This document shows positions 35,195-58,700 of a stretch of DNA of 64,000 nt, one piece after another (the stretch's first letter is position 1; each line of letters opens with the position of its first letter). Below the pieces are notes generated by a model. It saw nothing but the letters and a program-made list of their open reading frames with translations. It had not been told where the DNA came from and made no database searches. This stretch comes from Candidatus Micrarchaeota archaeon (lineage in GTDB: Archaea > Micrarchaeota > Micrarchaeia > Micrarchaeales > CABMGC01). The stretch lies in assembly GCA_021828295.1 (NCBI GenBank), contig JAKASF010000001.1, positions 2,702 through 66,701 of the forward strand. Reading direction: 5' to 3'. Both the position numbers and the translations under genes were made by a program.

Positions 35195-35196
35195 GG

Positions 35197-35964: not shown

Positions 35965-36690
35965 ATGGTGAAACTACGCGCAGTGCAGATAATCTCCGTT
36001 ATTCTGATATTCGTCATCTTCATAGTTTCCACGGCTCTTGTCGCATCGGCTAACTACACTATTCTTGCGGCCTCGCTCTTCACCATGATGAACATCATAG
36101 GGGCCACGTTCCCGCCCTCGGCCAGCCTGGTTGACGCCAAAAACCCGCTCATCCTCTTCTCGCTGACGCTGGCCGGCATAGCCAACGTGATATTCACCAT
36201 AACCTTCGCCACCATATTCTATCAGCTGCTGGTGGGGATAGACGTGAGGTACGTGCTGCTGAAGCAGAGGCTGCGCACCGTCTCCAGCCACGTGGTTCTC
36301 ACCCCTATAAATTCAATGAGCCTCGAGCTGGCCAGAAAGCTCAAGGAGAACAGAACGCAGCCATTGCTCATAGACGAGAACAAGTACGAGGTCAGGAGGG
36401 CGCACCGCGCCGGCTTCCTGGCCATACACGGCAACCCAGCGGAGCAGGACACGCTGCGCGAGGCCAGGGTAGACCACGCCCTGGCGCTCTGCACGCTCTA
36501 CGATGACGACATAAAGAACACGCTTGTCACCATCGAGGCCAGGCGCGGGGGCAGGCAGATCCGCGTCCTCACCAGGATAAAGCACGTAGAGGACATACCG
36601 AAGATGGAAAGGTCTGGTGCGCGCAGGGTGATACTGCCCGAGGCCGCGGTGGGCATAGAGCTCGGCGACTTCCTCCTTGCTAACAGCTAG
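35965..36690 (+). CDS. Membrane protein with C-terminal RCK-like domain
   Basis: The start abuts the previous stop. TM helices followed by HVVLTPINSMSLELARKLKENRTQPLLIDEN...HGNPAEQDTLREARVDHALALCTL. Confidence 0.65.
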   Translation: MVKLRAVQIISVILIFVIFIVSTALVASANYTILAASLFTMMNIIGATFPPSASLVDAKNPLILFSLTLAGIANVIFTITFATIFYQLLVGIDVRYVLLKQRLRTVSSHVVLTPINSMSLELARKLKENRTQPLLIDENKYEVRRAHRAGFLAIHGNPAEQDTLREARVDHALALCTLYDDDIKNTLVTIEARRGGRQIRVLTRIKHVEDIPKMERSGARRVILPEAAVGIELGDFLLANS

Positions 36691-36759: not shown

Positions 36760-37959
36760 ATGGCCGACCAGCCGATTACTACCAGCATCGACGACCTTGT
36801 CAAGTACCTCAACGAGCACGGCGAAACAGATTCAACCACGCTAGCATCGGCGCTGAAGGTAGGCGAAGGAATCATAGAGACCTGGTCCGATGTGCTCGAA
36901 AAGGCGCAGATTGTCAGGGTAAACTACAAGCTTGGCAAGATGTACGTATCGCCCATGGTGGTCAGCAAGGAGGGCGCGGAGGTAGCCAAGAAGACTGTCG
37001 AGCTGAAGAAGGGAGCCGCGGAGACGGAGCTCGCAAGCCAGATAAGCATGATAAACCAGCTCAACTCGCGCCTCGAGGAGTTCAGGAAGTATGTTGCTGG
37101 CGCTGACGTGGCTTTCAAGGCCAAGGGCGGGCAGGCAAAGGGGGCCCTGGACCAGATAGACAAACTCGTTTCTCAGGTTGACGGGGCATACAGGAGGCTG
37201 AAGGAGAAGAAGGATCTTGTCGACCAGCTCTCGGAGAGGCTCGACAAGGACGCAGCAAAACTGGAGGAGAAGGCCAAGAGCGCAGGGAGCGTATCAGGAG
37301 ACGACAGCGACACGCTCCGCATAATAAACGACATAAGCGCAAAGCTCGACGATTCCGAGGGCAGGCTGCGCGCGCTCAACGCAAGCATAGTCTCAACCTT
37401 AGATCAGAGCAGGAGCAGCTTCGCACAACTATCGAACAGCATAAAGGAGGAGACCAAGGCGCTGCGGGAGACACTGAACCAGCGCGAGAAGGAGCTGCAG
37501 GAGTACGAATCATCGCTGAAGTCGTACAGGCAGGAGTCGGAGTCTGTGAAGAGGCAGGCAGCGAAGGAACGCGTCAAGATGACCGACGATGTTGCCAGAG
37601 CGAGCGACGATGCGAGGAAGGTATACGCTGTAGCCGAGAAGCAGATTATAGACGTGAAGAGGACGCTCACAGAGATGAAGAGCCAGTTCGGAGGTTTCGC
37701 GGACCTGAGCGACAGGCTTAATGGAATAAGGAGCAGCATAGAGTCGATATCCAAGGAGAAGGATGAGCTTCAGAAGGAGCTGGCGCAGCTGCAGGAGCAG
37801 CTCCGCGCTCTCTCCTCGATAGACACGTCAAAGGTGGCCGAGAAGACCATGAGGATGCAGCAGATAGAGAAGAGCGTCTCTGAGGCGGCGAAGAAGGAGG
37901 AGGAGCTGAACAAGAAGGCCGACGGCGTAAAGAGCGGGATAGACAAGATGGCGAAGTGA
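36760..37959 (+). CDS. N-terminal winged-helix + long coiled-coil protein (399 aa), first gene of pilus-machinery operon
   Basis: A TATA-like CTTTAAAGG (36731-36739) lies 25 nt upstream. N-terminus IDDLVKYLNEHGETDSTTLASALKVGEGIIETWSDVLEKAQIV. The remainder is heptad-rich (E/K/L/S). Confidence 0.6.
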   Translation: MADQPITTSIDDLVKYLNEHGETDSTTLASALKVGEGIIETWSDVLEKAQIVRVNYKLGKMYVSPMVVSKEGAEVAKKTVELKKGAAETELASQISMINQLNSRLEEFRKYVAGADVAFKAKGGQAKGALDQIDKLVSQVDGAYRRLKEKKDLVDQLSERLDKDAAKLEEKAKSAGSVSGDDSDTLRIINDISAKLDDSEGRLRALNASIVSTLDQSRSSFAQLSNSIKEETKALRETLNQREKELQEYESSLKSYRQESESVKRQAAKERVKMTDDVARASDDARKVYAVAEKQIIDVKRTLTEMKSQFGGFADLSDRLNGIRSSIESISKEKDELQKELAQLQEQLRALSSIDTSKVAEKTMRMQQIEKSVSEAAKKEEELNKKADGVKSGIDKMAK

Positions 37960-37963
37960 GTTG

Positions 37964-39487
37964 ATGCAGGACGCGCAAACGCAGCAGAGGGGAGGAGAGA
38001 AGGAGTATGCCTCGTACGAGCTAGACGCGCACGGGCTGAAAATATCTGTGCGGATACTCGACAAAGGCAGCTTCGTGCCGATCTACGAGGTCACAGTGCC
38101 GGGCCTCGGCGACGCCACCAAGGTGCTGCTCATCTCGCTGAGGCAGGAGCTGCTCTCGATGGTCCCGATAGATCCGACGAGGATAGAGGACCAGGAGTAC
38201 GTCAACGAGCTCACGCAGAAGTACATCGAGGCCTCCAACGTGATAATAGACAGGTACCTGCCGGGCTCCACCCCCGACACGAAGAAGATACTCATCGCCT
38301 ACGTTATCAACTTCATGCTGGGCCTGGGCGACCTGGAGGGGCCGCTGTCCGACGACAACCTCGAGGAGGTTGCTGTCAACACTTCAAAGGAGCCGATATG
38401 GGTATACCACAAGAAGTTTGGATGGTGCAAGACCAACCTGATGGTCCAGGACGAGGACGTAGTCTACAACGACGCCGAGCAGATAGGCAGGCGAATAGGC
38501 AGGCAGATCTCGAACCTCGCGCCGCTGATGGACGCTGAACTTCCAGACGGCTCGAGGGTCAACGCCACCCTATACCCAATCTCGCAGAAGGGCAACACGA
38601 TAACGATAAGGAAGTTCGGAAAGAACCCGTGGACGATGACCGCCATGGTGGCCAACGGCACGCTCTCATCAGAGGTGGCCGCGCTGACCTGGCTTGCGGT
38701 GGAGAACGAGGTCAGCATACTCATATCGGGGGGCACGGCCAGCGGAAAGACCAGCTTCCTGAACGGCATGAGCATCTTCATACCCCCGAGCCACAGGGTC
38801 ATCTCGGTAGAAGAGGACCGCGAACTGACGCTGCCCAACTTCCTTCACTGGGTGCCGATGCTCACGAGGCAGCCCAACCCCGAGGGCAAGGGCGAGATCA
38901 CCCTGTACAACCTCATGATCAACGCGCTCAGGCAGAGGCCAGACGTGATGCTGGTAGGAGAGGTGAGGACGAAGAGCGATGCCGAAACGCTCTTCGAGGC
39001 CATACACACCGGACACGCGGTCTACGGCACAGTGCACGCCGACAACGCGCAGGACACTATAGTGCGTATGACAAACCCGCCGATAGACGTCCCGAAGATG
39101 ATGCTTAACGCTTTCGGAGGGGTAATCTCGCTCTTCAGGCACAGGAGGCTTGGTATAAGGCGTGTGCTTGAGTTTGCAGAGATGCTCAGGAGCGGCGATG
39201 TCAGCGTCGTGTACAGGTGGGACGCGAGGAACGACGCATTCGCGCAGATAGCAGAGATTGCCAGGCTTAGCGAGACCATCTCGCTGTACGGGGGCTACGA
39301 CAGGAACGAGCTCTCCGACAACCTGGAAGGCAAGCAGAAGATACTCAACTGGATGGTGAAGAACAACATAACAGACGTCGACAGCGCCGGCTACGTTGTC
39401 TCGAGCTACTACAGGAACGCGGAGAAGGTGCTCAAGATGGCCTCCGACAACGTTCCTTACTCGAAGGATATGCTGGAAAAGCTCTAG
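37964..39487 (+). CDS. Type IV pilus/archaellum-type secretion ATPase (ArlI/FlaI/PilB/VirB11 family)
   Basis: Walker A ISGGTASGKTSFLNG. Asp box VEEDRELTLP. Walker B RQRPDVMLVGEVR. His box HTGHAVYGTVHA. Confidence 0.9.
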   Translation: MQDAQTQQRGGEKEYASYELDAHGLKISVRILDKGSFVPIYEVTVPGLGDATKVLLISLRQELLSMVPIDPTRIEDQEYVNELTQKYIEASNVIIDRYLPGSTPDTKKILIAYVINFMLGLGDLEGPLSDDNLEEVAVNTSKEPIWVYHKKFGWCKTNLMVQDEDVVYNDAEQIGRRIGRQISNLAPLMDAELPDGSRVNATLYPISQKGNTITIRKFGKNPWTMTAMVANGTLSSEVAALTWLAVENEVSILISGGTASGKTSFLNGMSIFIPPSHRVISVEEDRELTLPNFLHWVPMLTRQPNPEGKGEITLYNLMINALRQRPDVMLVGEVRTKSDAETLFEAIHTGHAVYGTVHADNAQDTIVRMTNPPIDVPKMMLNAFGGVISLFRHRRLGIRRVLEFAEMLRSGDVSVVYRWDARNDAFAQIAEIARLSETISLYGGYDRNELSDNLEGKQKILNWMVKNNITDVDSAGYVVSSYYRNAEKVLKMASDNVPYSKDMLEKL

Positions 39488-39498
39488 GGTGAGATTGA

Positions 39499-40137
39499 TT
39501 GGCTGACGAAACCGATTACCAGAAGATGGTTGCTCTAGTGGAATCTATAGGCGAGGCGCCGAGCCCCGAGTCGATAACTGTTGACGTTAGCGAGGCGTTC
39601 CAGGACAGGCTGCAGGTCAGGAGCCTGAAGTATCTCGATGTGAGCGAGCCTCTGGATAGGCTGGAGGCGCACAGGCCCGCCCCGCAGCAGCGCGCCGTGG
39701 TCCAGCAGCCGAGCACGCCCAAACCGCAGGTCCAGCCACAGGTCCAGCCGCAGCAGCCAGCGCCACAGGTGCCAAAGCGCCAGGTGTCGAAGGAGATGAC
39801 TGGCGCAGCATCAAAGCTCAGGAGCATGGTCGGAGGGGCCGGGAAGGAGTTCGCCGAGAGCGTCACCAAACGCGTAGAGGAGACGCAGGAGGCTGGCCTC
39901 GTTATGCCAAAGCTCTCCCTGCAGGACCAGGTCTCAGATCTCGACAAGATAAAGGAAGGTCTCGATGAGAAGGTGTTTGACAGGGACCAGCTCAAGATAA
40001 TAGCCCAGGAGATCAGGGGCATCTCGCAGGTCGCAGCACGGGAGGACGTGGGCAGGATGAGCAGCGACCAGAGGGAGCTGGCCGAGATGAGGAACCAAAG
40101 GATTAAAGAGATAAAAAGCGGACTGAATGCAGCGTAG
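39499..40137 (+). CDS. Hypothetical protein with P/Q-rich linker
   Basis: 212 aa, with a TTG start (alternative ATG at 39526). QQPSTPKPQVQPQVQPQQPAPQVPK. No recognisable domain. It lies in the operon between the ATPase and the platform genes. Confidence 0.45.
   Translation: MADETDYQKMVALVESIGEAPSPESITVDVSEAFQDRLQVRSLKYLDVSEPLDRLEAHRPAPQQRAVVQQPSTPKPQVQPQVQPQQPAPQVPKRQVSKEMTGAASKLRSMVGGAGKEFAESVTKRVEETQEAGLVMPKLSLQDQVSDLDKIKEGLDEKVFDRDQLKIIAQEIRGISQVAAREDVGRMSSDQRELAEMRNQRIKEIKSGLNAA
39724..39774 (+). repeat. Short tandem repeat encoding PQVQPQVQPQQPAPQVP
   Basis: CAGGTCCAGCC[AG] is repeated in tandem within CCGCAGGTCCAGCCACAGGTCCAGCCGCAGCAGCCAGCGCCACAGGTGCCA. Confidence 0.6.
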
Positions 40138-40149
40138 CTGCGTGGTCTA

Positions 40150-41325
40150 ATGGCTATATTTGGAGGCAAGAAAAAAGCTGAAAAGGAGGAGAACAAGGGC
40201 CCGATACTAGGTTTCACCAAGCCGAAGAGGTTCCTGTTCTTCAAGATAAAGTCCAAGCCCATATACTCGAACCCGGGACCGGCTCAGCAGCCTCCTTCCG
40301 CCCCGCAGCCCCAAACCCAACCGCGGCCGCAGATACGGTCCGCGCCAGAACCCCCAAAGCCGCAGGCCGGCTCTCCGAGGCAGATGCCGAAGATGCCAAG
40401 CCTGTGGCCCCGCAAGCCCGAGGCCGGGCCGCAGGCGCAGCCGAGCGCCCAGCAAGCCCAACGGCCGCCGTCTCTAGGGCTGCAGCACCCCGCAGGAAGG
40501 CCGAACCAGTTCCAAATATACCTGATGAGCGTCGCGGAGAGGCACAAGGACCTCGAGGCCGCGCTGAGGGCCGAGGGGATAAAGGAGAGCCCGTACGAGT
40601 TCGTCAGGAAGATGTTCATGTACTCGGTGATAGTCAGCGTAGTGATAGCGCTCTGCACCGGCATACTTCTCGCTTCCAACGGCGTCACTCCGATACTCGC
40701 GTTGCTGCTGGGCGTGGCGTGCTACTATGGCCTGTTCAACAGGTTCATCAGGTACCCGCTCGACAGGAGCAAGGTGGTCGGCAAGGAGATAGAGAAGGAC
40801 ATACTCTTCGCCGCCAGGGACCTGGTCATAAGCATGCGATCCGGAATGCCGCTCTTCAACGCAATAACTGCCGTGAGCACAGGCTACGGCGCGGCCAGCC
40901 TCGAATTCGCCAAGGTGGTCGAGCTGGTGCAGCTCGGCACTCCGATAGAGCAGGCCCTCGACGAGGTTAGCAACAGGTCGCAGTCGAAGACGTTCAAGAG
41001 GATAACGCTGCAGGCCACGGTGAGCCTGAAGGCAGGCGCCGATGTGGTCGGTGCGCTGCAGGGGGTGGTGGACGAGGTAATGCAGGAGCGCGTCATAGAG
41101 CTGAGGAGGTACGGGCAGAGGCTCAACGCGCTCGCAATGTTCTACATGCTCTTCGGTGTCATCTTCCCGAGCATGGGGATAGCAGTCGCTGCGATACTCA
41201 CCACGTTCATCAACCTATTCACAGTTGACGAGTCTACGCTGCTCGCGGCGCTGATAGGCATCTTCTTCCTGCAGGTCATATTCCTGAACATAATGAGGTC
41301 CTCGAGGCCTACATTCGCGATGTGA
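40150..41325 (+). CDS. Pilus platform protein, single T2SSF domain (TadB-like half of ArlJ/PilC) with P/Q-rich N-terminal region
   Basis: N-terminal residues of about 40-120 are P/Q/A-rich. Then LFAARDLVISMRSGMPLFNAITAVSTGYGAASLEFAKVVELVQLGTPIEQALDEV plus flanking TM helices form a T2SSF-type domain. Confidence 0.75.
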   Translation: MAIFGGKKKAEKEENKGPILGFTKPKRFLFFKIKSKPIYSNPGPAQQPPSAPQPQTQPRPQIRSAPEPPKPQAGSPRQMPKMPSLWPRKPEAGPQAQPSAQQAQRPPSLGLQHPAGRPNQFQIYLMSVAERHKDLEAALRAEGIKESPYEFVRKMFMYSVIVSVVIALCTGILLASNGVTPILALLLGVACYYGLFNRFIRYPLDRSKVVGKEIEKDILFAARDLVISMRSGMPLFNAITAVSTGYGAASLEFAKVVELVQLGTPIEQALDEVSNRSQSKTFKRITLQATVSLKAGADVVGALQGVVDEVMQERVIELRRYGQRLNALAMFYMLFGVIFPSMGIAVAAILTTFINLFTVDESTLLAALIGIFFLQVIFLNIMRSSRPTFAM

Positions 41326-41329
41326 AAAA

Positions 41330-42322
41330 ATGAAGATAGAATACGAGAGGCTCATATCAAGGAGCGTTGCAAACCTCTTCGTTCGCGAGCTCGAGCTCGC
41401 GGGCGTGAAGACGAACATCAACAGCTTCATCCGCACCATGGTCCTGGGCGGCCTAGCGATCTTCGTGCTCGTCCCCATCGCGCTCTTCTTGGGCGCCGGC
41501 CTGAACGCCGGCATCGCCGTCTTCGGAGGGATAGCCGCAGCGGCCATATTCGAGGTAGTCATATACGCGCTGCTCGAGTTCAAGATAGAGCAGAGGAAGA
41601 CGTTCGTGGAGGACCTGCTTCCGGATTACCTGCAGCTTGCTGCTGCAAACGTGAGGAGCGGCATAGCCCTCGACAAGGCGATGGTCCTTGCGGCACGCCC
41701 CGAATTCGGATACTTCAGCGATGACGTGAAGGAGATGAACAAGGAACTGTACGGCGGCGAGACGCTGCAGCAGGCGATGACCAACCTCGGCAGGAGATAC
41801 AGGTCGACGCAGCTCCAGCACACGATACGAATGATGAACGAGGGCATACAGTACGGCGGAGGCATGACAGACCTTCTCAACCAGATAGCCAAGGACATAC
41901 GCAACCAGCACATGGTTCAGAAGGAGATAAGCGGGCAGCTGTTCATGTACACGATATTCATCGCATTCGCGGCGCTGATAGGCGCCCCGATTCTTTACGC
42001 TCTCACGTCGCAGATGATAGGCGTTACAGATACTGTATGGGCCGGAATACTGAAGCAGAATCCCGGCGGCCTGCCTACAGCAGGCATCTCGTTCCTCAGG
42101 CCCAGCCCGCCAAAGATAACCATAGCCGCGTACCACAACTTCGCGCTCGCCAGCGTTATACTCATCTGCGGCTTCGGCGCTTTCATAGTCTCGGCGATAT
42201 CCACAGGTTCCGTGCTCAAGGGCATACGCTATCTGCCAATATTCCTCATCGTGGGCCTCGGCATCTTCTTCGTCGTGTCGTCGCTGATAGGCGGCATCTT
42301 CACCAGCATAAGCGGCGTGTGA
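41330..42322 (+). CDS. Pilus platform protein, single T2SSF domain (TadC-like half)
   Basis: LPDYLQLAAANVRSGIALDKAMVLAARPEFGYFSDDVKEMNKELYGGETLQQAMTNLGRRY plus TM helices. It starts 4 nt after the previous gene. Confidence 0.75.
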   Translation: MKIEYERLISRSVANLFVRELELAGVKTNINSFIRTMVLGGLAIFVLVPIALFLGAGLNAGIAVFGGIAAAAIFEVVIYALLEFKIEQRKTFVEDLLPDYLQLAAANVRSGIALDKAMVLAARPEFGYFSDDVKEMNKELYGGETLQQAMTNLGRRYRSTQLQHTIRMMNEGIQYGGGMTDLLNQIAKDIRNQHMVQKEISGQLFMYTIFIAFAALIGAPILYALTSQMIGVTDTVWAGILKQNPGGLPTAGISFLRPSPPKITIAAYHNFALASVILICGFGAFIVSAISTGSVLKGIRYLPIFLIVGLGIFFVVSSLIGGIFTSISGV

Positions 42323-44989
42323 CTACTGGGGCGTCTGGAATCCCAGGGACTGCCACTCGTTCGATGTCGCGGCGATTGTGGAGAGGCCTGGTGCGTTGTA
42401 CGTTCCCGAGAAGTAAGGATAGATCACATTGGATGCCGTTCCGTTATCGTTATAGCCGCTGTAGTCTTTGGCGTTCCCGTTGAGCGGCCACCAGCCGATC
42501 AGGTTGCCCACTATTGGCAAGCCGGCAATCCCCTGCTGATACAGCCGTTTGATCTGCAACGCCGAGAGGCCAGCGCTGTAGATCTGCACGTTAGTTATGT
42601 TGCCCGAAAACTTTCCGTTGTGTATCGAAGTGTCGCCCACAGTCACCTGGCAGTAGCCGCTTCCCCCATTGCATGTGGAACTGTACGTTATGGATCCCGT
42701 GTGCGTCACAACCCCCGAGCTTACCCCATCGGTGTATATGATGACGTTGCTGCCATCGTAGACTCCCGTCACCATATGCCATCCTATAGCGATACCGTTT
42801 GCTGATGCGATATCCGTTGCGCTTATCGCGTTGCCCACTCCGAAGGATGGAGCCGTCGCACTACCGGCAAAAAAGAGTCCATACCCTCCACACGTGCCGC
42901 ACGAGTCCACCCCGGAATCGAGTAGCGACGGAGAGCTTTGTGAGGTGCCGATGCGTTCGGCCCACAGGTTGACCGTAACCGCAGTCGAGGGCTGCAGGAT
43001 CGAATTGGTGCCGTCATTGATATGCGTGTTCTGGCCGTTGAAGTTTGCAGTCTGCATGCGGCCACTCTGCACCTCGAGAGGCATGTAACCGGCATACAGC
43101 TCGGGTACGGTGTTGGAAGCGCAGCTTGTTACCGATACACAGGAAAGAAGCCCCGGTATGGGCGAGAGCGACGTGGGCACCGTAGTCTGAAACACGCTAT
43201 CCCTCGCATATCCAGGAAGCAGAACGAATGAAACTCCGTTCACCAGTATCCCGTTGTTGCTGTTTCCGCTGTAGTCGTTCGCGTTCCCGTTTAGCGGCCA
43301 CCATCCAACCACGTTTCCGGAGATCGGCACTCCAGATATGCCCTCTTGGTAAAGTTTCTGTACCTGCGGCGAGGCGAGCTGCGTGTTATAGATCTGCACA
43401 TCGCCTATCTGCCCGCCGAACGGGGCTCCGCTACTGGTCTGGTAGACGCCTATGAACGCGGTTCCGCTAAGTACCGTATTGGGAGTCGCGCCTGCGCTGC
43501 ACGTCGCCACGCCTCCCACGCCATCGTCGTATATGACCAAGTTGTTATTCGTGCCGGAAACCAGCGCGCCGCCGCTGTAGGCGAAGCCCACCAGATGCCA
43601 CGAGTTGTCTGTGACCGTAGCCGTAATGTAGCAATACGTGCCCTGTATCTCCCACTCGATCTGATTTGGGGACAGATCAAGGAGCAATGCCGAAACCTCC
43701 GAGTTCGACACTGTCCCGTACGACGAAATCACCTCTTCTCCGGTATTTGAAGTTCTGATCCATGCAAACATCGATCTCGCGCTGCTTCCCGTAGGCAGTC
43801 CCGAGTCGCTTACCTGCACGTACTGGTTGCTCGCGCTTGTGAAGCCCCCTGCCTGCGTGCCGAAGCCAGAGAAGGTGAAGATTCCGCTAGGAGACTGCGC
43901 GTTGAAGCTTGCCTGAGCCCTGTCCAGGTAAGACGGCGCGAAGGGCGACGCGAAGAAGTAGCCGTTGCTCGCTGCGCCGCGCAGGTTCTCTATGTTGAAC
44001 GTGGCGTTTGCGGGCCCGTAAAGCAGGACCCGCGTTCCTGAAGGCATCAGCGCGAGGACGTTCGATGAGGCCGGGTATACGAGATACGGCCCGGCGGGCA
44101 GGGTTGACGGCGCTATATAGGAGATGAGTCCGGCATAGCTGTTCTCGCAGCTTTCGAGCCCTATCGCGTTGTACGTTGCCAGTATTGTGTTTGACTCAAT
44201 CGGCTGGGTCGATATCTGCGAGGGTATAGAGCCGCATGATGCCCCGCTCACCGCGTTGCTCGCCAGCCAGTACACTGTCCCATACGCATAGCCCGCGGTG
44301 TTGCTAGATGTGGCATAGGCTCCCCCCATCCTGGTGCTGAGGTTTGCTATATTCGCGAAGGCAACTGGACTCAGCACGCCGCGCTGCGCCGCGAAGAGGT
44401 CCGGGGTGTTGTTGAGCGAGAGAGACGCGTTGACCGGTATAGTGTATTGGTAGTTGTCTCCAGACGAGTTGACTCCTATGCGCTCCATGTACGAGATGCG
44501 TATGTGGTACGGGTCCGTCTGGTAGATCACGGGCCTGCTCTCGTTTACGGCTACCGATTGGGCCGCGAAGCCGATCACGTTTGCTACCGAAAGATTGTAC
44601 TGCTTCAGCGTGAGGTTGCCCATCGCGTTCTGCGGGTAGCCAGACGTGTCGTTGGGCAGCATCCCGTTGGTGACCAGGTACGAGAGGTAGAGGCTGGAGT
44701 TCGTGATGAAGTTGGACTTCCTGTACGAAGGCGTCGACTCGTACGTCGCCAGCGTGGATATCGCCCTGCTGAGGCTCGCGGCCGCGAAGTTGTTCGCGCT
44801 CAGCTTGAAGAGGTTCGCATAGTTCGTAGAGGCAGAGGAGACCGCGAGCGACTGCGCCAGGTTGTTGGAGCTCACGTTAAGCAACGCGAAGGCGAAGAGC
44901 TCTGCGAGCAGCAGCAACAGCAGGATTAGCATTATCAGTGTCATCAGCTGCCCCTTGCTCTGCCCCGCTATGATGCTTTTCAGCTCCAT
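42323..44989 (-). CDS. Giant pilin-like surface protein (888 aa): class III signal peptide + LamG/concanavalin-like modules
   Basis: N-terminus MELKSIIAGQSKGQLMTLIMLILLLLLLAELFAF (KGQ followed by a hydrophobic helix). Two LamG junction motifs, VVGWWPLNGNANDYSGNSNNG and LIGWWPLNGNAKDYSGYNDNG, each preceded by VQIY[NS]..L...Q...LYQ.GI.G.P. Confidence 0.75.
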   Translation of the reverse strand: MELKSIIAGQSKGQLMTLIMLILLLLLLAELFAFALLNVSSNNLAQSLAVSSASTNYANLFKLSANNFAAASLSRAISTLATYESTPSYRKSNFITNSSLYLSYLVTNGMLPNDTSGYPQNAMGNLTLKQYNLSVANVIGFAAQSVAVNESRPVIYQTDPYHIRISYMERIGVNSSGDNYQYTIPVNASLSLNNTPDLFAAQRGVLSPVAFANIANLSTRMGGAYATSSNTAGYAYGTVYWLASNAVSGASCGSIPSQISTQPIESNTILATYNAIGLESCENSYAGLISYIAPSTLPAGPYLVYPASSNVLALMPSGTRVLLYGPANATFNIENLRGAASNGYFFASPFAPSYLDRAQASFNAQSPSGIFTFSGFGTQAGGFTSASNQYVQVSDSGLPTGSSARSMFAWIRTSNTGEEVISSYGTVSNSEVSALLLDLSPNQIEWEIQGTYCYITATVTDNSWHLVGFAYSGGALVSGTNNNLVIYDDGVGGVATCSAGATPNTVLSGTAFIGVYQTSSGAPFGGQIGDVQIYNTQLASPQVQKLYQEGISGVPISGNVVGWWPLNGNANDYSGNSNNGILVNGVSFVLLPGYARDSVFQTTVPTSLSPIPGLLSCVSVTSCASNTVPELYAGYMPLEVQSGRMQTANFNGQNTHINDGTNSILQPSTAVTVNLWAERIGTSQSSPSLLDSGVDSCGTCGGYGLFFAGSATAPSFGVGNAISATDIASANGIAIGWHMVTGVYDGSNVIIYTDGVSSGVVTHTGSITYSSTCNGGSGYCQVTVGDTSIHNGKFSGNITNVQIYSAGLSALQIKRLYQQGIAGLPIVGNLIGWWPLNGNAKDYSGYNDNGTASNVIYPYFSGTYNAPGLSTIAATSNEWQSLGFQTPQ
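43266..43303 (-). repeat. 38-nt exact inter-gene repeat (copy 1) encoding WWPLNGNANDYSG
   Basis: CCGCTGTAGTCGTTCGCGTTCCCGTTTAGCGGCCACCA is identical to 49956..49993. Diverged copies lie at about 42455-42505, 45151-45201, 48308-48358, 48947-48997 and 49637-49684. Confidence 0.9.
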
Positions 44990-47148
44990 GAGTATACACC
45001 CACGCTTATAGTGTTGCTCGAACCAGTGGCGTAGTTGAGGACGGGCAGCAGCGTGCTCGCCTTAGATATCTCGTAAGCGTTGGAGAGCGATGGCGCAGTG
45101 TAGGCCACGTTAACGAATCCAGCGCTGCCTACCTGGAACGCTGTATTGAAGTCTGCGTAGTCGTTGGTGCTGCCGCTCAGCGGGTACCAGGCCACGAGGC
45201 CCGCGCCGCTCACCGGAACGCCTCCGGGCCCGTTCCTGTAGAGCGTGAAGATCTGCTGCCGGCTCAGCGCGGTGTTGTAGACCTGCAGGTCGGCAACGTT
45301 GCCCGTGAAGTACCTGCTGTCAGTGGGCAGGCCCCCGCCTACTGTGAGGTTTATTTTTGGGGTCGCATAAGAGAGCGAGCCCGAAATGCCTGTAGAAAGC
45401 GGGATGTTGGCGTTAATGTACAGGTTAACGTCGCTGCCGTTGTACGAGCCGGTTACGAAGTACCACCTGCCGGTGCTGAGCGTATAGCCCGGACTGCTGG
45501 TAACAGTGCCGCCGATGCTGGCATTGAACAGGAGCACTCCAGAAGAAGATATCTCGAAGAACCAGCCGCAGTTGGTGGTCGGGGATGCGCATCCTCCGCC
45601 GTTGTCTCCGTAGCTGACGACCCTGCTGCCGCTTGAGGGGTAGGAGCTGACGTTCATCCAGAACGAGACGCTTGCCAATGTGGTGTTCAACGGTCCCGAG
45701 TTCCTTGCGATGTCAAAACCTTTCGCTCCGTTGAAATGGGCCACGCTGAGCGTGTTCGTCGAGATGCTGCCGGCGAACAGCGTATAGTTGGCGGCGGGGT
45801 AGACGCTGTTCAGTAGCGCCTTTCCACAGCCTGCCTGGCCGTTCAGGAACATGGTCGCCGCCGCTGCGAGCAGTGTCGTGTGTGGCGGCGAGAAGCACGA
45901 GCCGTACGCGAGGACCTGGTTGTTGGCAATAACGAAGAGCTTCCCGTAGGCGAGCGTCATGTACGGGTATATGGTTGCTCCGTGCAGGCTCGCAAACCAC
46001 TTTATCGTACCTGTTGAGAGGTTCTCGCCTGCGAGCCCGTCCTGCCATAGCGTATAGACCATGGTGCTTGTGACCACAGGCGTCGCGTTGACTACGTTCG
46101 CTCCGAAGTAGGCCGGCACGGCGACGCTCCAGTACGCGTTGCCGCTGGGCGAGATCGCGGCCACGCCTGCAGTGGTCTGGTATACGCTGTAGTTCTTGTA
46201 CACCGCTGCGCCGGTCACGGCGCTGGTGGTCCCGACAGGGAAGCCCGGAACTACGGTGCCGTTGGTGTATATCGCGTTCGCGTTGGCTCCGGTTCCAAGG
46301 TAGTATGTGCTCTGCTCGCTTGCAGACCTCGTCGGGGCGCTTCCAGAGTACGCGGTGCTCGTGAGTGATGCGGATGCTGTCCCTGCGCGGACTATGACGT
46401 TGACAGCGTTGCTGCTGGTCTTCACCACAAGGCTGCCCCCTGCGCCGGTTATCGATACCGGCGCCGCTGCCAGCGAGTATGACCAGTAGGAGGTGCCGTT
46501 GGTCGAGTAATACGAATGTACCTTGTTGTCGCTCCCTCCGAAGATGACCTCGTTGTTGTAGGCCATCATCGCCGTGTCTGGCGAGATGCCGCTTACCGAG
46601 TTGGTGCTCCAGACCCTGGCGCCTGTGCCGGCGTTCACCGCCGTAAGGTTGGTCGCATTCATGAAGTATATCATCCCGGAGTATGCGGCTGGAGTGCTGC
46701 CCACGTTGTTTATCGTGTTTATCGCCCACGCACGCGTGTTCGTGGTCGCATTGACTGCATAGAGCACGCTGTTTGCCGCGAAGTAGATGTTGCCGTAGGC
46801 GGCCACCACCCCTGTGGTGATCGTGTTGCCTGGGCTGAAGCTAGACACGAGTATCGGCTCGCTCGGCCCAATCGGGTTGCTGCTGTTCTCCCTTACCCCT
46901 CCGAGGAAGAGCGGCCATGTCTCGTTCATTCCCAGGTACTGGTTGTAGAGCGATGCGGCAAGCACGCTGCTGTTGCGCACCGAGTCTACGGTTGTGCCGG
47001 CGAGGTTCGCCAATATCGCCTGCGCATTCGAGTAGTGCAGGCTGTACGCGGTCGGGCTGTAGTAGTTGAACAGCAGCAGGACCGATATCCCTACTATCGC
47101 TATTACGAGCGCGAATATCGCATCCATCGTGAATACTATGCCCTTCAT
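44980..47148 (-). CDS. Pilin-like surface protein (722 aa): class III signal peptide + PQQ-like beta-propeller region + C-terminal LamG module
   Basis: N-terminus MKGIVFTMDAIFALVIAIVGISVLLLF. Repeats of the type LYAVNATTNTRAWA / LTAVNAGTGARVWS / VHSYYSTNGTSYWS. C-terminus LQVYNTALSRQQIFTLYRNGPGGVPVSGAGLVAWYPLSGSTNDYADF. Confidence 0.7.
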   Translation of the reverse strand: MKGIVFTMDAIFALVIAIVGISVLLLFNYYSPTAYSLHYSNAQAILANLAGTTVDSVRNSSVLAASLYNQYLGMNETWPLFLGGVRENSSNPIGPSEPILVSSFSPGNTITTGVVAAYGNIYFAANSVLYAVNATTNTRAWAINTINNVGSTPAAYSGMIYFMNATNLTAVNAGTGARVWSTNSVSGISPDTAMMAYNNEVIFGGSDNKVHSYYSTNGTSYWSYSLAAAPVSITGAGGSLVVKTSSNAVNVIVRAGTASASLTSTAYSGSAPTRSASEQSTYYLGTGANANAIYTNGTVVPGFPVGTTSAVTGAAVYKNYSVYQTTAGVAAISPSGNAYWSVAVPAYFGANVVNATPVVTSTMVYTLWQDGLAGENLSTGTIKWFASLHGATIYPYMTLAYGKLFVIANNQVLAYGSCFSPPHTTLLAAAATMFLNGQAGCGKALLNSVYPAANYTLFAGSISTNTLSVAHFNGAKGFDIARNSGPLNTTLASVSFWMNVSSYPSSGSRVVSYGDNGGGCASPTTNCGWFFEISSSGVLLFNASIGGTVTSSPGYTLSTGRWYFVTGSYNGSDVNLYINANIPLSTGISGSLSYATPKINLTVGGGLPTDSRYFTGNVADLQVYNTALSRQQIFTLYRNGPGGVPVSGAGLVAWYPLSGSTNDYADFNTAFQVGSAGFVNVAYTAPSLSNAYEISKASTLLPVLNYATGSSNTISVGVYSWS

Positions 47149-47687
47149 CAGCCAACACCAAAGCTCTTGTTAGTCCAGATTATTATCAGTACGCTTACAG
47201 GAACGCCATTGAGAACAGCAGACTGTCTTGCAACCTGTATGGCGTACGGGTTCCTCGTGTAGGGATACAGGCCCATCGCGAGCGTCGAGTTGCTCGAGTT
47301 TATTGCTATGTACCAGTCGTAGCCCACGCCCAGCAGCTGCTTTGTAGATTCGTATGTCAGCGTGTTGTAGTTGCTCATGGCCGCTAGCGCCGCTATCTTG
47401 CCGGGGGAGAGCTGGCTCCCGCTCCCTGTGCCGAGCCCGATGCTGACGTTGGACCACGTGAGCGTGTTGGTCACGTTAATCGCCGAGTTCCAGTTCTGCG
47501 GCGTGCCCCGCGTCAGGACCCGGCCCTGGAGGCTCTGCAGCTGTGCCTGCATCGTCTGGAGCCCGAGGCCGTATGCCGTGCTGTACTGGCCGCTTATGTT
47601 CACCCAGACAAACGTGAGCAGTATGAGCGCAGACCCGAATATGATCATGGCGAATATGACGTCAAACGACCAGAATTGGGCTTTCAT
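47148..47687 (-). CDS. Small pilin-like protein (179 aa), candidate major or minor pilin
   Basis: MKAQFWSFDVIFAMIIFGSALILLTF. The ATG at 47687 forms an ATGA overlap with the upstream stop. The track's 294-aa version (to 48032) adds an Arg-rich extension that overlaps the upstream gene. Confidence 0.7.
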   Translation of the reverse strand: MKAQFWSFDVIFAMIIFGSALILLTFVWVNISGQYSTAYGLGLQTMQAQLQSLQGRVLTRGTPQNWNSAINVTNTLTWSNVSIGLGTGSGSQLSPGKIAALAAMSNYNTLTYESTKQLLGVGYDWYIAINSSNSTLAMGLYPYTRNPYAIQVARQSAVLNGVPVSVLIIIWTNKSFGVG

Positions 47688-50600
47688 GGTGACCAACTCA
47701 GTGGGATGAGCGCGTATGCGCTTGGAGGCGACTGCGCGTTGTACAGCTGCTGTATCTGCGGCTGCGTGAGCGGAATGTTGTATAGCTGTACGTCGGCGAG
47801 CGTGCCGTTGAGGTAGTCGTTGGCCGTTCCGTCGGCCCCTATGTAGAACGGGTTGCTGTTCGCCACGCTTCCGATTCCAGACGCGCTGCCTGTGGAGGCC
47901 ACTGCGCCATCGGCGTAGGTTGTGACGTACTGCCCCGACAGGAAAGTGCACGCCACGAAGTGCCATCTGCTGTCCGCGTACGAGCCCGTGCTGTCGTACC
48001 TGGCGTTTCCGCCCCCTCCGTTGACCCCGCATGCCAGTTCGCCGCCGTTCTCCATGCGGAAGTCGAAGCCCGCGGAGCTGCCCACGTAGCCGTGGTACAG
48101 TATCGAGGGCGAGCCGCTAGAGTAGCCTGCTTTCATCCACGCCGTGACAGTGAATGCAGCTGTGGGGTTGACATATTGCGGCACTTTTATGTAGCCGTTC
48201 TGGCCGTTGAGGCTGACACCGGTTCCTGCGAACACGCTGGGCTGCGCGGGTAGCGATACCGTGTGCGAGTAGTACATGACGTTGGATGCGGTTCCGTTGT
48301 TGCCCCTGCCAGAATAGTCGTTCGCATTCCCGTTTAGCGGCCACCACCCCACGAGGCTCGTGTTGCTTATAGGCGCTCCCTCCGCTCCCCTGCTGTAGAT
48401 CTGCGCGATCTGGTTCGAGTTCAGCGTTGTGCTGTACACCTGGACGTTGAGCACGTTGCCAACGAAGGCGCCGTCGTTGCCCCTGCCTATCTCGAGCGGG
48501 CCTATGTTGTTGAACGTCGTGGCTAGGGAGAGCGAGCCGTCGTAGACGCCGTTTACGAATATCTTGAACGTGGAGCCATCGTAGGTGCCCACGAGATTGT
48601 ACAGCGTGTTGGCCTGCAGCGCCTGCGCGGTCGAAGGAAATGCCTGGTTCTGCGCGGAGAATCCGGCCACGCCGGTCGACCTTATGTACATCGTATATCC
48701 ACCTCCGGAGCCGTAGTTCATCTGCAGGGCGTCGGATTGCACTATATTGCTTGGAATCAGCCAGATAGACACCGCTATGTCGCTGGCAACGTTCAGCGAT
48801 CCCGAAAGGGGCACGCTCACGTAGCTTCCCCCGCTCACGGCGTTGAAGCTCGCGGCAAGCACCCCGCTCGAGTTGCTTATCGCGCCTGTCGTCGTGGGGC
48901 TTGCGGTGAATCCAAGGTTGCCGTATATGGTGCCGTTGAGCCCGTCGCCAGAATAGTCGAGCGCGTCTCCTGCAAGGGGCCACCAGCCCACCAGTCCCGC
49001 ATTTGTTGGCGGCACACCTGATACTCCCTGCTGGTAGAGCTGTTGCAGCTGCGATTGCGTGAGGAGCGAGTTGTACACCTGCGCATCAGCCATGCCGCCG
49101 CTGAAGTACTGTCCGGATTTCTTGCTGTCGTCTGTTCCAATGTATGGGACCGCGGTGCCTCCGTACGTGATTGCGCCGCCGCTGTACGTGTAAGACTGCG
49201 CGAGAACTCCGTTCAGGTACGTGGACACCACGTTCGTGACAGAGTTGTATTCGCAGGTCACCATGTACCACTTCCCCAGTACCAGAGACGGGGTGATCGA
49301 GTTGCTGGATCCAGAATTGCCGCTGGAGGTATGGACCGCGCAATCGGCCGCAGTCGACGGTGAGCTGCCGCAGTCGAAATCCATCTGCCAGCCTCCCCCG
49401 CCGTCGGCTCCGTTCTGCATCACCCTCTGGCACCTTCCGGCGGTGCCGCTGGCCGTTGACTCGTACTGCGGATCGATCCAAGCAGAATACGTTATTGCTG
49501 ACGATGGTTGCAGCAACGCCGTGTTCGCTGGAGCAATGTAGCTCGTGTTGCCGTCGAAATCAGCCACAGAGTTGGGGTTGCCCCATCCCGCTCCCCCAAG
49601 CAGTGAGCCCGAGCTGCCGCCGCCGCTCGCGTCAGAGGCCGCGTTGCCCTGCCCGAGGTTGAGCGGCCACCAGCCTATGAGGTTGCCGTCCAGGGCGGTG
49701 TTGCCGTTGTATGCCGTTGCCTTGACAACAGCCTGGCCGTTCGTCAGGTTCTGCGTTAGGAAGGCCACCGCTATTCCCGCAGTGTTGGTGTAGTTTGAGG
49801 TTGCATGGGCGTTCCCGTTAAGGTTTCCAAGAGTGGTAGTGAACCCGACAAGGTCGTTGGCAATCGCGTATCCCGCCTGGTTGGTGACGTTCGCAAAGAG
49901 CTCCGCGACTGTAGTGAAGAGCAGCGGTCCGCTAACGACTCCGTTGTTTCCCTGCCCGCTGTAGTCGTTCGCGTTCCCGTTTAGCGGCCACCAGCCTATG
50001 ACATTCGCGGCAAGTATCGGAGGGCTTGTTATTCCCTGCGAATACAGGGACTGAACCTGGCTTGACGAAAGGACCGCATTGTAGACCTGGACGTTGCTCA
50101 TTCCGCCGTTCCAGTACGTCGAACCTGCGCCGTTTTCCTGCCCGATCAGAACCGGATTTGAAGAGGCCGAGTAGGTCTTCGCGTATGAGACGCACGAGCC
50201 TCCAAGCAGCGCCCCGTTTATGTAGAAGCAAACCTGGTTGTTTCCGTTATTCGTTATCACGACATAGTACCAGGCGCCTTCGCGCAGCACCACGCTGGAT
50301 GATTGTACATAGGCATAGCTCGAGCCGTCTCCTATAAGCAATTCGAGCACATCGCTCGCTCCGCAGTAGCGAAACTCATATCCAGAGCTCGACCCCAGCT
50401 TCGATAGCATTGATTGGCAGTCACTATGCGAGTTCTCATAGAGCCACGCAGAATAAGAGAAAGGACTCGACGCAAATCGCAGAGCAGGGGTATCAGCGAC
50501 GGTGATGACGCTGGTTTGTCCGTTGAAGAGCGCAGCGTGCGCTGACTGCGATGAGAGACTCACGTTGGCTGCCTGAACGCTCGCGTTCGGGCAGTTGTAA

Positions 50601-51046
50601 TCGACGCATATGGTCCCGAACGAGTTCTGTATGTAGAGCGTGCCGTTCGCTATCGGAAGGTTGTAGTAGAAGGTGCCGGGCTGGAGGTACGAGCTGCTCG
50701 ATGCCACGTTCTTCACTGTGCTGAACGCATACGCCTGGATCGCCTGGCTGCCCACGCTCGCGTTCACTATCACCTCTCCGTTCTTAGTTATCAGCAGCTG
50801 GTACGCAAGCGTGCCCACATCTCCTGTTATCGGGACCCTGGCTGTGTAGCCGTTGCCTGCCTGCAGAGCCGTGTCCATCTGCGCCGCTATGCTCTGTGCC
50901 ACGAGCTGCTCCTGCGAGAAGAGCTGGCTGCTGAGCGTCTGCGCCCTCTGCGTGGCGATCAGGGAGAAGAGGAAGAGAAAGACCACGAGCACGAATGCGA
51001 AGATAATCATGAATTCCAGAGCTATCTGCAATTTCTTTCCAGGCAT
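47684..51046 (-). CDS. Giant pilin-like surface protein (1120 aa): class III signal peptide + four LamG-type modules
   Basis: N-terminus MPGKKLQIALEFMIIFAFVLVVFLFLF. Four junction motifs: VIGWWPLNGNANDYSGQGNNG, LIGWWPLNLGQGNA, LVGWWPLAGDALDYSGDGLNG, LVGWWPLNGNANDYSGRGNNG. Confidence 0.75.
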   Translation of the reverse strand: MPGKKLQIALEFMIIFAFVLVVFLFLFSLIATQRAQTLSSQLFSQEQLVAQSIAAQMDTALQAGNGYTARVPITGDVGTLAYQLLITKNGEVIVNASVGSQAIQAYAFSTVKNVASSSSYLQPGTFYYNLPIANGTLYIQNSFGTICVDYNCPNASVQAANVSLSSQSAHAALFNGQTSVITVADTPALRFASSPFSYSAWLYENSHSDCQSMLSKLGSSSGYEFRYCGASDVLELLIGDGSSYAYVQSSSVVLREGAWYYVVITNNGNNQVCFYINGALLGGSCVSYAKTYSASSNPVLIGQENGAGSTYWNGGMSNVQVYNAVLSSSQVQSLYSQGITSPPILAANVIGWWPLNGNANDYSGQGNNGVVSGPLLFTTVAELFANVTNQAGYAIANDLVGFTTTLGNLNGNAHATSNYTNTAGIAVAFLTQNLTNGQAVVKATAYNGNTALDGNLIGWWPLNLGQGNAASDASGGGSSGSLLGGAGWGNPNSVADFDGNTSYIAPANTALLQPSSAITYSAWIDPQYESTASGTAGRCQRVMQNGADGGGGWQMDFDCGSSPSTAADCAVHTSSGNSGSSNSITPSLVLGKWYMVTCEYNSVTNVVSTYLNGVLAQSYTYSGGAITYGGTAVPYIGTDDSKKSGQYFSGGMADAQVYNSLLTQSQLQQLYQQGVSGVPPTNAGLVGWWPLAGDALDYSGDGLNGTIYGNLGFTASPTTTGAISNSSGVLAASFNAVSGGSYVSVPLSGSLNVASDIAVSIWLIPSNIVQSDALQMNYGSGGGYTMYIRSTGVAGFSAQNQAFPSTAQALQANTLYNLVGTYDGSTFKIFVNGVYDGSLSLATTFNNIGPLEIGRGNDGAFVGNVLNVQVYSTTLNSNQIAQIYSRGAEGAPISNTSLVGWWPLNGNANDYSGRGNNGTASNVMYYSHTVSLPAQPSVFAGTGVSLNGQNGYIKVPQYVNPTAAFTVTAWMKAGYSSGSPSILYHGYVGSSAGFDFRMENGGELACGVNGGGGNARYDSTGSYADSRWHFVACTFLSGQYVTTYADGAVASTGSASGIGSVANSNPFYIGADGTANDYLNGTLADVQLYNIPLTQPQIQQLYNAQSPPSAYALIPLSWSP
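49956..49993 (-). repeat. 38-nt exact inter-gene repeat (copy 2)
   Basis: Identical to 43266..43303. Confidence 0.9.
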
Positions 51047-51047
51047 C

Positions 51048-51518
51048 TCATACCTTGGGGGTGAGGTACACGCACGGCACCGCGTTGTTGCTCGGGCACG
51101 AAGCTACCGAGGTCACGTTCACCAGGTAGGTTCCAGTGGACGTTATGCCTCCTAGGGAGCCGCTCACGTTCACCGGCGTGTACGCGGTGATGTAGCTGAG
51201 GCCCGAGGGCGACGTTATCACGAATATGACCTCGTGCCCTATCGTGTTGTTCACATTGCCGACGTAGATGAACCTCACGTTTGGAGGTACCTGTATCTGC
51301 ACCAGCTGCTTTGCCGGCGGTCCCTGGCTGCCTATGAGCGTGGCCGTGCTGGCCAGCTTGCTCGCCGCCTGCTGGGACTGTATGGCCGACAGGTTAGTGT
51401 TCGTGCTCGCCAGCTGTATGAAAGCTATTATCACCAGAGGCAGCAGTATCGCGAGCCCGAAGGCTAGCGTCACGAGCAGCTCGAAGCTCGACTGAAGCCT
51501 TTTACTCCCGTTCCTCAT
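51048..51518 (-). CDS. Small pilin-like protein (156 aa), first gene of pilin operon
   Basis: MRNGSKRLQSSFELLVTLAFGLAILLPLVIIAFI. The KRLQ-xxx-E-L pattern is shared with the next gene (KKLQIALEF). I moved the start to the ATG at 51518; the track's 51686 extension is Arg/Ser-rich and overlaps the CBS gene. Confidence 0.65.
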   Translation of the reverse strand: MRNGSKRLQSSFELLVTLAFGLAILLPLVIIAFIQLASTNTNLSAIQSQQAASKLASTATLIGSQGPPAKQLVQIQVPPNVRFIYVGNVNNTIGHEVIFVITSPSGLSYITAYTPVNVSGSLGGITSTGTYLVNVTSVASCPSNNAVPCVYLTPKV

Positions 51519-58692: not shown

Positions 58693-58700
58693 GTTGTGCG

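Follow-up and report, generated by a model that had tools for sequence, protein, structure and literature searches.

What does a type IV filament machinery build when the operon that faces it encodes proteins of up to 1120 amino acids (aa) carrying lectin-like modules? The question is raised by a locus in a 64,000-nucleotide (nt) stretch of DNA from Candidatus Micrarchaeota archaeon (assembly GCA_021828295.1, contig JAKASF010000001.1, positions 2,702 to 66,701), which is called the window throughout. Two operons converge here: a machinery operon on the plus strand (36760-42322), with a secretion ATPase and two platform genes, and a minus-strand operon (42323-51518) of five tightly overlapping genes, which begins one base past the end of the former. 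This zero-spacing abutment (42322/42323) had been pointed out in an earlier reading made without database searches (below, the sequence-only reading); it is borne out, and all ten open reading frames (ORFs) are present at the coordinates given there. The suspicion that the organism might be host-dependent also proved right: it is a host-dependent member of the Diapherotrites, Parvarchaeota, Aenigmarchaeota, Nanoarchaeota and Nanohaloarchaeota (DPANN) assemblage, the ATPase being 100% identical to a protein of a Candidatus Micrarchaeota metagenome-assembled genome (MAG). Our answer, held with moderate confidence, is that Micrarchaeota have here their own form of the split-platform type IV filament systems of archaea, of the Epd-like "System 1" kind, and that it comes with its own set of minor modular pilins. 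The five minus-strand proteins are referred to as types A to E, counted from the junction of the operons.

Related loci were collected from a scan of one genome per species, from which the best 80 of 506 matches were taken. All 80 are of Micrarchaeota type, including that of the cultured Candidatus Micrarchaeum sp. A_DKE (locus L045). The conserved order runs coiled-coil protein, ATPase, proline/glutamine-rich (P/Q-rich) protein, platform half A and platform half B, followed by the convergent types A, B, C and D; type E is present where the flank of the related locus extends far enough. Seven lineages are without types A and B and keep a core of C, D and E. An arrangement repeated in about 80 genomes of different species lies far outside what chance would give, and the locus is real, conserved and biologically meaningful. 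Five of the loci (L026, L050, L063, L065 and L075) come from MAGs named Candidatus Marsarchaeota or Candidatus Acidiferrales bacterium and have the same layout, with ATPases 62-85% identical, which suggests mislabelled or mis-binned contigs.

The evidence that carries the pilin part of the answer lies at the N-termini of the minus-strand proteins. In each of the five a short basic leader precedes a hydrophobic helix, and both segments are highly conserved throughout the phylum. The general pattern is K/R at position -2 and usually G/A at -1, and within the helix Q +1 and an acidic residue (D/E) at either +5 or +6. Glutamine occupies +1 in four of the five window proteins (KG↓Q, KA↓Q, KL↓Q and RL↓Q, the arrow standing before +1), in agreement with the EppA-type cleavage sites of the Methanococcus Epd pilins, which read RAQI, KGQV, KGQL and KGQI (PMC4371748). 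Type C is the most conserved of the five: Q +1, S +4, D +6 and F +9 are invariant in 37 of 37 orthologs, with K/R at -2 in 36 of the 37 and A/G at -1 in 30. Its 63 homologs are all annotated as hypothetical, and those with an organism name all belong to Micrarchaeota-type MAGs. Type B (MKG↓IVFTMDAIF) has a common x-x-[FW]-[ST]-x-D-x-x-F core with type C, and both K -2 and D +6 are found in 28 of 28 orthologs, G/A -1 in 27. For type D (MPGKKL↓QIALEF), K/R is present at -2 in 9/9 orthologs and Q +1 and E +5 in 8/9 each. The type E leader, MRNGSKRL↓QSSFELL, leads into a QSSFELLVTL core that is identical in the orthologs of three related loci (L043, L064 and L067). Type A (...SKG↓QLMTLIML) has an acidic residue at neither +5 nor +6, and its leader varies more, with K/R at -2 in 25 and G/A at -1 in 23 of 32 orthologs; it is also the type that matches a FlaFind-like pattern, both in the window and in 31 of 40 orthologs. 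Invariant polar or acidic residues within the helix are what is expected of pilin alpha-1 segments and not of generic anchors, and we regard the five proteins as probable prepilins. Gene models matter at this point. An automatic gene call starts type D 12 codons late (1108 aa; L001 16355-19681), and the conserved K-x-QIALEF leader is lost; shortened gene models of this sort would conceal pilin-like signals from annotation pipelines. The start of type C was corrected to give a protein of 179 aa (47148-47687, MKAQ...) instead of 180 aa.

Behind these leaders the three large proteins are modular, as the sequence-only reading had proposed on finding one to four LamG modules in each. By Pfam, the 888-aa protein has two Laminin_G_3 domains, the 722-aa protein one (E=1e-17) and the 1120-aa protein four (E=9e-88). 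Between the leader and the first LamG domain, type A has a domain of about 380 aa that matches no family, and its orthologs range from 407 to 1538 aa in length; the corresponding domain of type D measures about 160 aa. The PQQ-like propeller proposed for one of the proteins was found by Pfam in the 722-aa type B (PQQ_2, E=2e-14) and by structure prediction. The AlphaFold2 model of this protein (predicted local distance difference test score, pLDDT, 84; predicted template modeling score, pTM, 0.83) consists of a helix at residues 2-26, a short helical stalk, an eight-bladed propeller at aa 100-415, the LamG domain, a beta-sandwich, at about aa 455-640 and a C-terminal beta domain. Foldseek matched the propeller to BamB (E=1e-17, template modeling (TM) score up to 0.76 on the target), and also to YxaL. 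A pilin-type N-terminal helix with grafted modules, including a concanavalin-like LamG, is thus seen in the 722-aa model and in the Pfam matches. Of the two small proteins, type C was modeled by AlphaFold2 (pLDDT 85) with an N-terminal helix at aa 8-57 and a small alpha/beta head of two more helices and a four-stranded sheet, and type E matched no family in Pfam or NCBIfam. Composition fits a location outside the cell for all five: K+R make up 2.4-4.5% of these proteins against 10-17% in the cytoplasmic proteins of the locus, and N-glycosylation sequons number 1.2-3.3 per 100 aa.

Two further observations concern the large proteins. A near-identical motif, G-W-W-P-L-N-G-N-A-N/K-D-Y-S-G, follows LamG domains in all three (aa 562 and 832 of the 888-aa, aa 653 of the 722-aa, and aa 351, 687 and 900 of the 1120-aa protein) and is missing after the last LamG of the 1120-aa protein. 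Probably the motif forms the opening strand of the LamG_3 unit that comes next, although copies are also found close to the C-terminus of the 888-aa protein and, in the 722-aa protein, about 70 aa from its end. Membership of TafC, the haloarchaeal Tat-fimbriae family, was considered for type D and rejected: the NCBIfam match covers the LamG region only and scores 112 bits where 410 are required, and the N-termini are not Tat signals.

The platform is the other half of the question. Each platform gene encodes a single T2SSF domain by Pfam, as first described, at aa 222-346 in half A (E=7e-14) and aa 101-224 in half B (E=3e-15), the scores of 52 and 57 bits comparing with a cut-off of 25. In half A the disordered N-terminal extension is 46% P+Q over aa 41-125. 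In the NCBIfam ArlJ model half A aligns to the N-terminal side (positions 10-248 of 555, E=9e-7), and half B aligns to C-terminal parts of the UpsF (265-438 of 484) and ArlJ (182-465 of 465) models; the pair thus looks like a two-domain ArlJ-type platform that was cut midway and kept the order of its halves. When half B was searched exhaustively, 326 clusters (50% identity) came back at E<1e-30, nearly all of 310-470 aa and with a single matched stretch; of 20 relatives sampled, the only two with an organism name came from Aenigmarchaeota and Nanohaloarchaea. One candidate for a fused two-domain relative, P0230 (635 aa), proved to be single-domain with a long N-terminal extension.

The ATPase belongs to the ArlI/PilB family, in line with the sequence-only reading, by its Pfam T2SSE match (E=2.9e-32), a Walker A motif readable in the translation (GGTASGKTS) and its PDB matches, where Archaeoglobus fulgidus GspE (2OAP, 232 bits) ranks above FlaI (200) and CpaF (162). 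The NCBIfam scores for FlaI (253 bits), TadA (171, cut-off 373) and BasE (140, cut-off 1000) are all below the respective cut-offs. More than 120 clusters are at least 64% identical to it, and nearly all the organism-named ones are Micrarchaeota. Gene callers place its start at ATG 37964 (507 aa), and the ORF can be extended to TTG 37961. The other two proteins of the machinery operon are less readily classified. The 399-aa protein, whose gene lies directly upstream of the ATPase gene in nearly every related locus with a flank extending that far, had been described as a winged helix-turn-helix (wHTH) and coiled-coil protein. The coiled coil stands: it is long, and the matches in Pfam and NCBIfam are limited to proteins of coiled-coil type, SMC and Rad50. 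The wHTH drew sub-threshold matches only, to MarR in Pfam (E=0.035) and, in a profile search against the PDB, to LrpA, MarR and IclR, which came top at E~0.1. This N-terminal domain of about 65 aa is strongly conserved across 72 orthologs and may possibly be a winged helix. The 212-aa protein is indeed P/Q-rich (P+Q are 55% of aa 56-95), matches no family in Pfam or NCBIfam, and its gene keeps the same position in most related loci.

Several observations weigh against the interpretation of the locus as a System 1 filament machinery with five prepilins of its own. The FlaFind-like pattern fits only one of the five window N-termini (type A). The -1 residue of type D varies among S, L, I, M and A, a range uncommon at the sites of known prepilin peptidases. 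None of the five N-termini matches a curated pilin family at threshold: for types D and E the top-ranking Pfam family was Class_IIIsignal, which matched 6 of 14 N-termini with a best E-value of 5e-4 that is still below threshold, and the N-termini of types A to C matched no pilin family, Class_IIIsignal included. The class III signal peptides of the sequence-only reading are accordingly supported in part only, as a call at the level of the motif and not of curated profiles. No Peptidase_A24 that could serve as prepilin peptidase was found in the Pfam scan of the window, which covered about 50 of the roughly 60 ORFs of 90 aa or more, and the 64-kb window has no small ORF with a class III-like N-terminus that could be a major pilin. 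The N-terminal helix of the 722-aa model is short, at about 25 residues, and leads into a linker modeled with low confidence, not into a classical pilin head. The type C model, compared with PDB structures, recovered no solved pilin and only chance-level matches to ribosomal uS3 (E>=0.007, TM ~0.2), and a profile search of type C against PDB sequences gave no significant match. The tentative assignment to System 1 is from the split architecture and from the grouping by Golyshina et al. of an architecturally matching locus discussed below; subsystem 4A, too, has two platform genes in some DPANN archaea.

How far do other explanations account for the same facts? The platform genes lie only 4 nt apart and in different frames, and a sequencing or assembly frameshift in a single two-domain gene had to be considered, a check that the sequence-only reading had called for. 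The two genes are separate in 68 of the 68 species-level loci in which both are visible and fused in none; the 4-nt spacer is the modal one, conserved in 38 of the 68, with the genes mostly in different frames. Moreover, the exact half B sequence occurs on four independent contigs, one of them from a separate Logan assembly of a sequencing run. Since the genes are separate in all 68 loci and half B is identical on four contigs, we discard the artifact, which is hardly credible at all given that each half has its own N-terminal region and transmembrane segments and that single-domain relatives number in the hundreds. The comparisons lead us to regard the split as real and ancestral in the phylum. 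It had also been taken for a hallmark of bacterial Tad, and a Tad system gained by horizontal transfer would account for two single-T2SSF platform genes, for the automatic annotation of the ATPase as "CpaF family" or "TadA", and for faint Pfam matches to Tad/TadF on a few N-termini (E 0.03-0.6). The hallmark does not hold: the archaeal Epd-like, Clade 1 and System 1 pili are split as well, and the ATPase is nearer to archaeal GspE and FlaI than to CpaF, its TadA score falling short of the cut-off. ArlJ and UpsF, the models that the platform halves match, are archaeal; the scans of the window yielded neither a secretin or TadZ nor an Flp-type pilin or TadV; the locus is present in every related genome recovered (the best 80 of 506 matches all being of Micrarchaeota type, a few of them from MAGs labelled otherwise); and published phylogenies run from archaeal Epd-like systems to Tad (PMC6668835). 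We therefore hold a transferred Tad system to be very improbable.

The remaining two alternatives leave the machinery in place and concern what becomes of the five proteins. They could carry ordinary signal anchors, that is, be type II membrane-anchored or cleaved by the Sec signal peptidase I, merely adjoining the machinery and never polymerized. That four of the five fail the FlaFind-like pattern, that no pilin family reaches threshold and that the small-subunit model matches no solved pilin would all agree with this, as would the table published for the Micrarchaeota organism Mia14, which lists MIA14_0176 alone of the corresponding genes, as a secreted component and not as a class III pilin. 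Against it stand the invariant polar or charged residues within the helix (37/37 in type C; D +6 in 28/28 for B; E +5 in 8/9 for D), the same core in types B and C, the agreement of Q +1 with EppA substrate sites, and an operon that is tightly overlapping and strictly syntenic with the machinery in about 80 genomes. On balance plain anchors appear improbable, somewhat more so than the second alternative, in which a short membrane-proximal stalk, a bindosome-like or pseudopilus structure, would hold the LamG and propeller proteins at the surface or in the S-layer in the way of Sulfolobus Bas. The large subunits with binding modules and the match of the ATPase to the BasE model (140 bits) point in that direction, together with the want of a major pilin in the locus or window and a 2026 survey proposing that class III-signal binding proteins functionalize archaeal filament machineries (bioRxiv 10.64898/2026.04.22.720090). 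However, the BasE score is far under the 1000-bit cut-off and weaker than those for FlaI and GspE, and the cargo is of lectin and propeller type, not the solute-binding type of ABC transporters. The missing major pilin weighs little because System 1 major pilins are usually encoded away from the main locus, often as stand-alone genes (PMC4858521), and electron microscopy has shown pili-like connections that link archaeal Richmond Mine acidophilic nanoorganisms (ARMAN) to host cells (work cited in PMC5498576). A display structure of this kind is, in our estimate, unlikely.

Returning to a split-platform filament system with its own minor pilins, we propose the following working scheme. Platform halves A and B would form a heteromer that restores the usual pseudo-dimeric platform, on which the hexameric ATPase would dock, and the coiled-coil and P/Q-rich proteins might act as cytoplasmic scaffold or regulators. 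A prepilin peptidase (A24) encoded elsewhere in the genome would cut the five leaders. The N-terminal helices could then bring the two small and three modular subunits together in a complex that primes assembly or forms the tip, sitting on a filament of a major pilin likewise encoded elsewhere; a place at the tip is suggested because the three modular subunits would be far too bulky to pack along the filament. Targets of the lectin-like modules may be glycans or surface proteins, either on the Thermoplasmatales host or in a biofilm matrix. The five proteins most likely form a modular minor-pilin or tip adhesin set, and by analogy with other systems the idea of a tip adhesin that would be used in host attachment is a reasonable one. 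A bolder version, which we offer tentatively and consider fairly unlikely, is a dedicated heteromeric pilus-tip complex for host recognition in Micrarchaeota, and perhaps in DPANN archaea more widely, with the number of modules setting host specificity and with processing at a non-canonical class III site. If that were true, two small and up to three giant pilins would make up the complex, and LamG and propeller modules would vary between lineages, as the 407-1538 aa of type A do. The processing site, with Q +1 together with either an aromatic +2/+3 residue or something other than G/A at -1, would be missed by current predictors, which would account for the regular reports of DPANN type IV pilus loci that lack pilins.

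The set has a more immediate use. It provides five concrete candidate proteins for the attachment of the ultra-small, host-dependent Micrarchaeota (ARMAN) to their wall-less Thermoplasmatales hosts. The candidates are testable, the locus being phylum-wide and present in cultured A_DKE; because the five-member set is conserved in Micrarchaeota and in a cultured strain, the question of host attachment becomes experimentally approachable. Non-canonical leaders, one of which is removed by the automatic gene call, may also be why DPANN pilus loci have unannotated pilins.

Table 1. Genes of the two convergent operons, in window coordinates; ↓ stands before position +1.
Product	Coordinates	Strand	Remarks
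Cytoplasmic accessory protein, 399 aa	36760..37959	+	First gene of machinery operon
PilB/ArlI/GspE-family secretion ATPase, 507 aa	37964..39487	+	Pfam T2SSE
P/Q-rich accessory protein, 212 aa	39499..40137	+	Between ATPase and platform; conserved
Platform half A, 391 aa	40150..41325	+	One T2SSF; P/Q-rich disordered N-terminal extension
Platform half B, 330 aa	41330..42322	+	One T2SSF
Type A modular pilin-like protein, 888 aa	42323..44989	-	Two LamG
Type B modular pilin-like protein, 722 aa	44980..47148	-	Propeller and one LamG
Type C small pilin-like protein, 179 aa	47148..47687	-	Leader MKA↓QFWSFDVIF
Type D modular pilin-like protein, 1120 aa	47684..51046	-	Four LamG
Type E small pilin-like protein, 156 aa	51048..51518	-	First gene of pilin-like operon

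Around the two operons (table 1) the window encodes archaeal proteins such as topoisomerase VI B, eIF2-gamma, archease and TBP. Directly upstream of the machinery operon are three tandem TrkA_N-domain genes (34706-36690, plus strand), found in the same place or a few kb off in many related Micrarchaeota loci (among L003-L080). At the other end, a minus-strand gene (51502-52659) encodes tandem CBS domains and an S30AE/HPF-like domain; its stop overlaps the start of type E by 17 nt, it is syntenic with the type E gene in L043, L064 and L067, and it may be co-transcribed with the pilin-like operon. Next comes a 510-aa exosortase/archaeosortase-like membrane protein (53827-55359, plus strand; PF09721, E=5.5e-11), which is extended at its C-terminus by about 230 aa. 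We considered the LamG proteins as its substrates and rejected the idea because their C-termini are without a PGF-CTERM-like transmembrane tail. Farther on, a second HerA/TrwB-like ATPase (60038-61324, minus strand) lies upstream of a 721-aa protein on the same strand (56257-58422) that has a signal-like N-terminus and no family match, and several small unannotated ORFs are also found in 56257-61324. In the opposite part of the window, eleven consecutive plus-strand genes (6037-20067) are without a Pfam match except for the last (18487-20067), a HerA/DUF87, AAA_10 and TraG-P-loop ATPase. Six of them (8740-16813) encode weakly paralogous polytopic membrane proteins, and an internal R-x-x-G-G followed by a transmembrane segment occurs in the products of 8740-9930, 13224-14570, 14572-15621 and 15632-16813. 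Genes for a MoxR AAA ATPase (3105-4022) and for a membrane protein with DUF2079 (4015-5553) come just before this run, which could encode a transfer apparatus resembling those of conjugation or the Ced system.

Among known systems, the nearest in layout are the Epd-like or System 1 pili, such as those of Methanococcus maripaludis with EpdJ, EpdK and EpdL and with EppA-dependent pilins. Epd-like and Tad systems have two single-T2SSF platform genes that arose by gene fission, and Tad derives from an archaeal lineage (Denise et al., PMC6668835). In Methanococcus both platform-related genes, EpdJ and EpdK, are needed for piliation (PMC4371748). Clade 1 and many Clade 2 loci hold two TadC genes, and archaeal Clade 1 loci combine the two with at least five minor pilins and large adhesins (Makarova et al., PMC4858521). 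A 2026 survey takes the split platform as the defining trait of System 1 and records this system from methanogens, Thermococcales and DPANN (bioRxiv 10.64898/2026.04.22.720090), and loci of TadA/TadB/TadC type are reported in Nanohaloarchaeota and Undinarchaeota (PMC9563170). The window locus is similar in its one ATPase, two contiguous single-T2SSF genes, several minor pilin-like genes and large adhesin-like proteins, in the Q +1 of four of its five proteins, and in that the typical System 1 major pilin is encoded elsewhere; none of the headless kind, of about 70 aa, was found in the window. In contrast to Epd, where the platform genes precede the ATPase gene (Denise et al.), the order here is ATPase, small protein, N-half and C-half. 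The locus has no EppA-type peptidase and has the coiled-coil (possibly wHTH) and P/Q-rich proteins instead; its adhesin modules are LamG_3 and a BamB-like propeller, not DUF2341; and some of its subunits have a non-canonical -1 residue. No Pfam match to a FlaH/KaiC or FleN/MinD secondary ATPase was obtained among the window ORFs scanned.

Bacterial Tad (type IVc) is alike in the platform of two single-T2SSF proteins, the related ATPase family and the adhesive function. It differs, apart from the ATPase affinities given above, in the order of the platform genes and in the subunits. Tad operons run tadB then tadC, whereas the order in the window is N-half then C-half. TadB resembles the C-terminal half and TadC the N-terminal half of a two-domain platform (Denise et al., PMC6668835). 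The window subunits are giant modular proteins, not tiny Flp pilins, and neither Flp pilin, TadV, TadZ and RcpA secretin nor TadE/F/G came above threshold in the Pfam scans of the window. The split platform is ordinary for its class, and the link to Tad goes no further than the published derivation of Tad from archaeal Epd-like systems.

Adhesins built on minor pilins offer another comparison. Bacterial type IVa pili have PilY1, and PilY-like adhesins are known from archaeal System 2 and subsystem 4A/B; these are large propeller adhesins encoded with minor pilins, and a tip role in both adhesion and surface sensing is proposed for them (PMC4858521; bioRxiv 10.64898/2026.04.22.720090). Unlike PilY1, the propeller protein of the window has its own pilin-like N-terminus, and its propeller is eight-bladed and of BamB/PQQ type; no locus protein matched DUF2341 or the PilY1 family in Pfam. 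Sulfolobus Bas, for its part, differs in both ATPase and cargo, as set out above. A closer architectural parallel is that of Streptococcus sanguinis, where minor pilins including PilC, with a concanavalin-like lectin module, are modeled as a tip adhesin complex with a small partner pilin; the small pilin stabilizes the lectin-module pilin, and the set is modeled to cap the pilus (PMC9934059). The proteins PilB (vWA), PilC (lectin) and PilA resemble those of the window in having a pilin helix, a short pilin moiety, a grafted concanavalin-like module and small partners alongside, and a tip-located adhesive complex that also primes assembly has been proposed for them. They are bacterial and unrelated in sequence, with single modules and a total of about 50 kDa, whereas the window proteins have up to four LamG domains, plus a propeller, and reach 1120 aa, with relatives of up to 1538 aa. 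The S. sanguinis pilins have been shown to be processed, to enter the pili and to bind glycans, and the window proteins are known from sequence and models.

The most direct comparison is within the phylum. Candidatus Mancarchaeum acidiphilum Mia14 (Golyshina et al. 2017) has two type IV pilus systems, one of which, MIA14_0170-0177, comprises a CpaF-type ATPase (0170), two TadC proteins (0172 and 0173) and a secreted component (0176), and was assigned to the group of Methanococci, Methanothermobacteria and Thermococci; a single FlaK-like peptidase gene lies elsewhere in that genome (PMC5498576). The order ATPase, one gene, TadC, TadC, secreted component matches the window, and from this gene architecture we infer that the two loci are orthologous. 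Mia14 also has an expansion of LamG proteins, some of their genes linked to pilus loci, for which a role in host interaction was proposed (PMC5498576). The finding is thus in outline already in the literature, by way of the Mia14 locus, the LamG link and the host-interaction proposal. Of the downstream genes, the pilus table of that study includes MIA14_0176 alone; the LamG genes are not described there as class III pilins, and the paper is without the five-gene set, the propeller or the conserved N-terminal motifs. What is new here is accordingly modest and well defined: a five-member set of proteins across Micrarchaeota with conserved but non-canonical prepilin-like N-termini, LamG and propeller giants among them.

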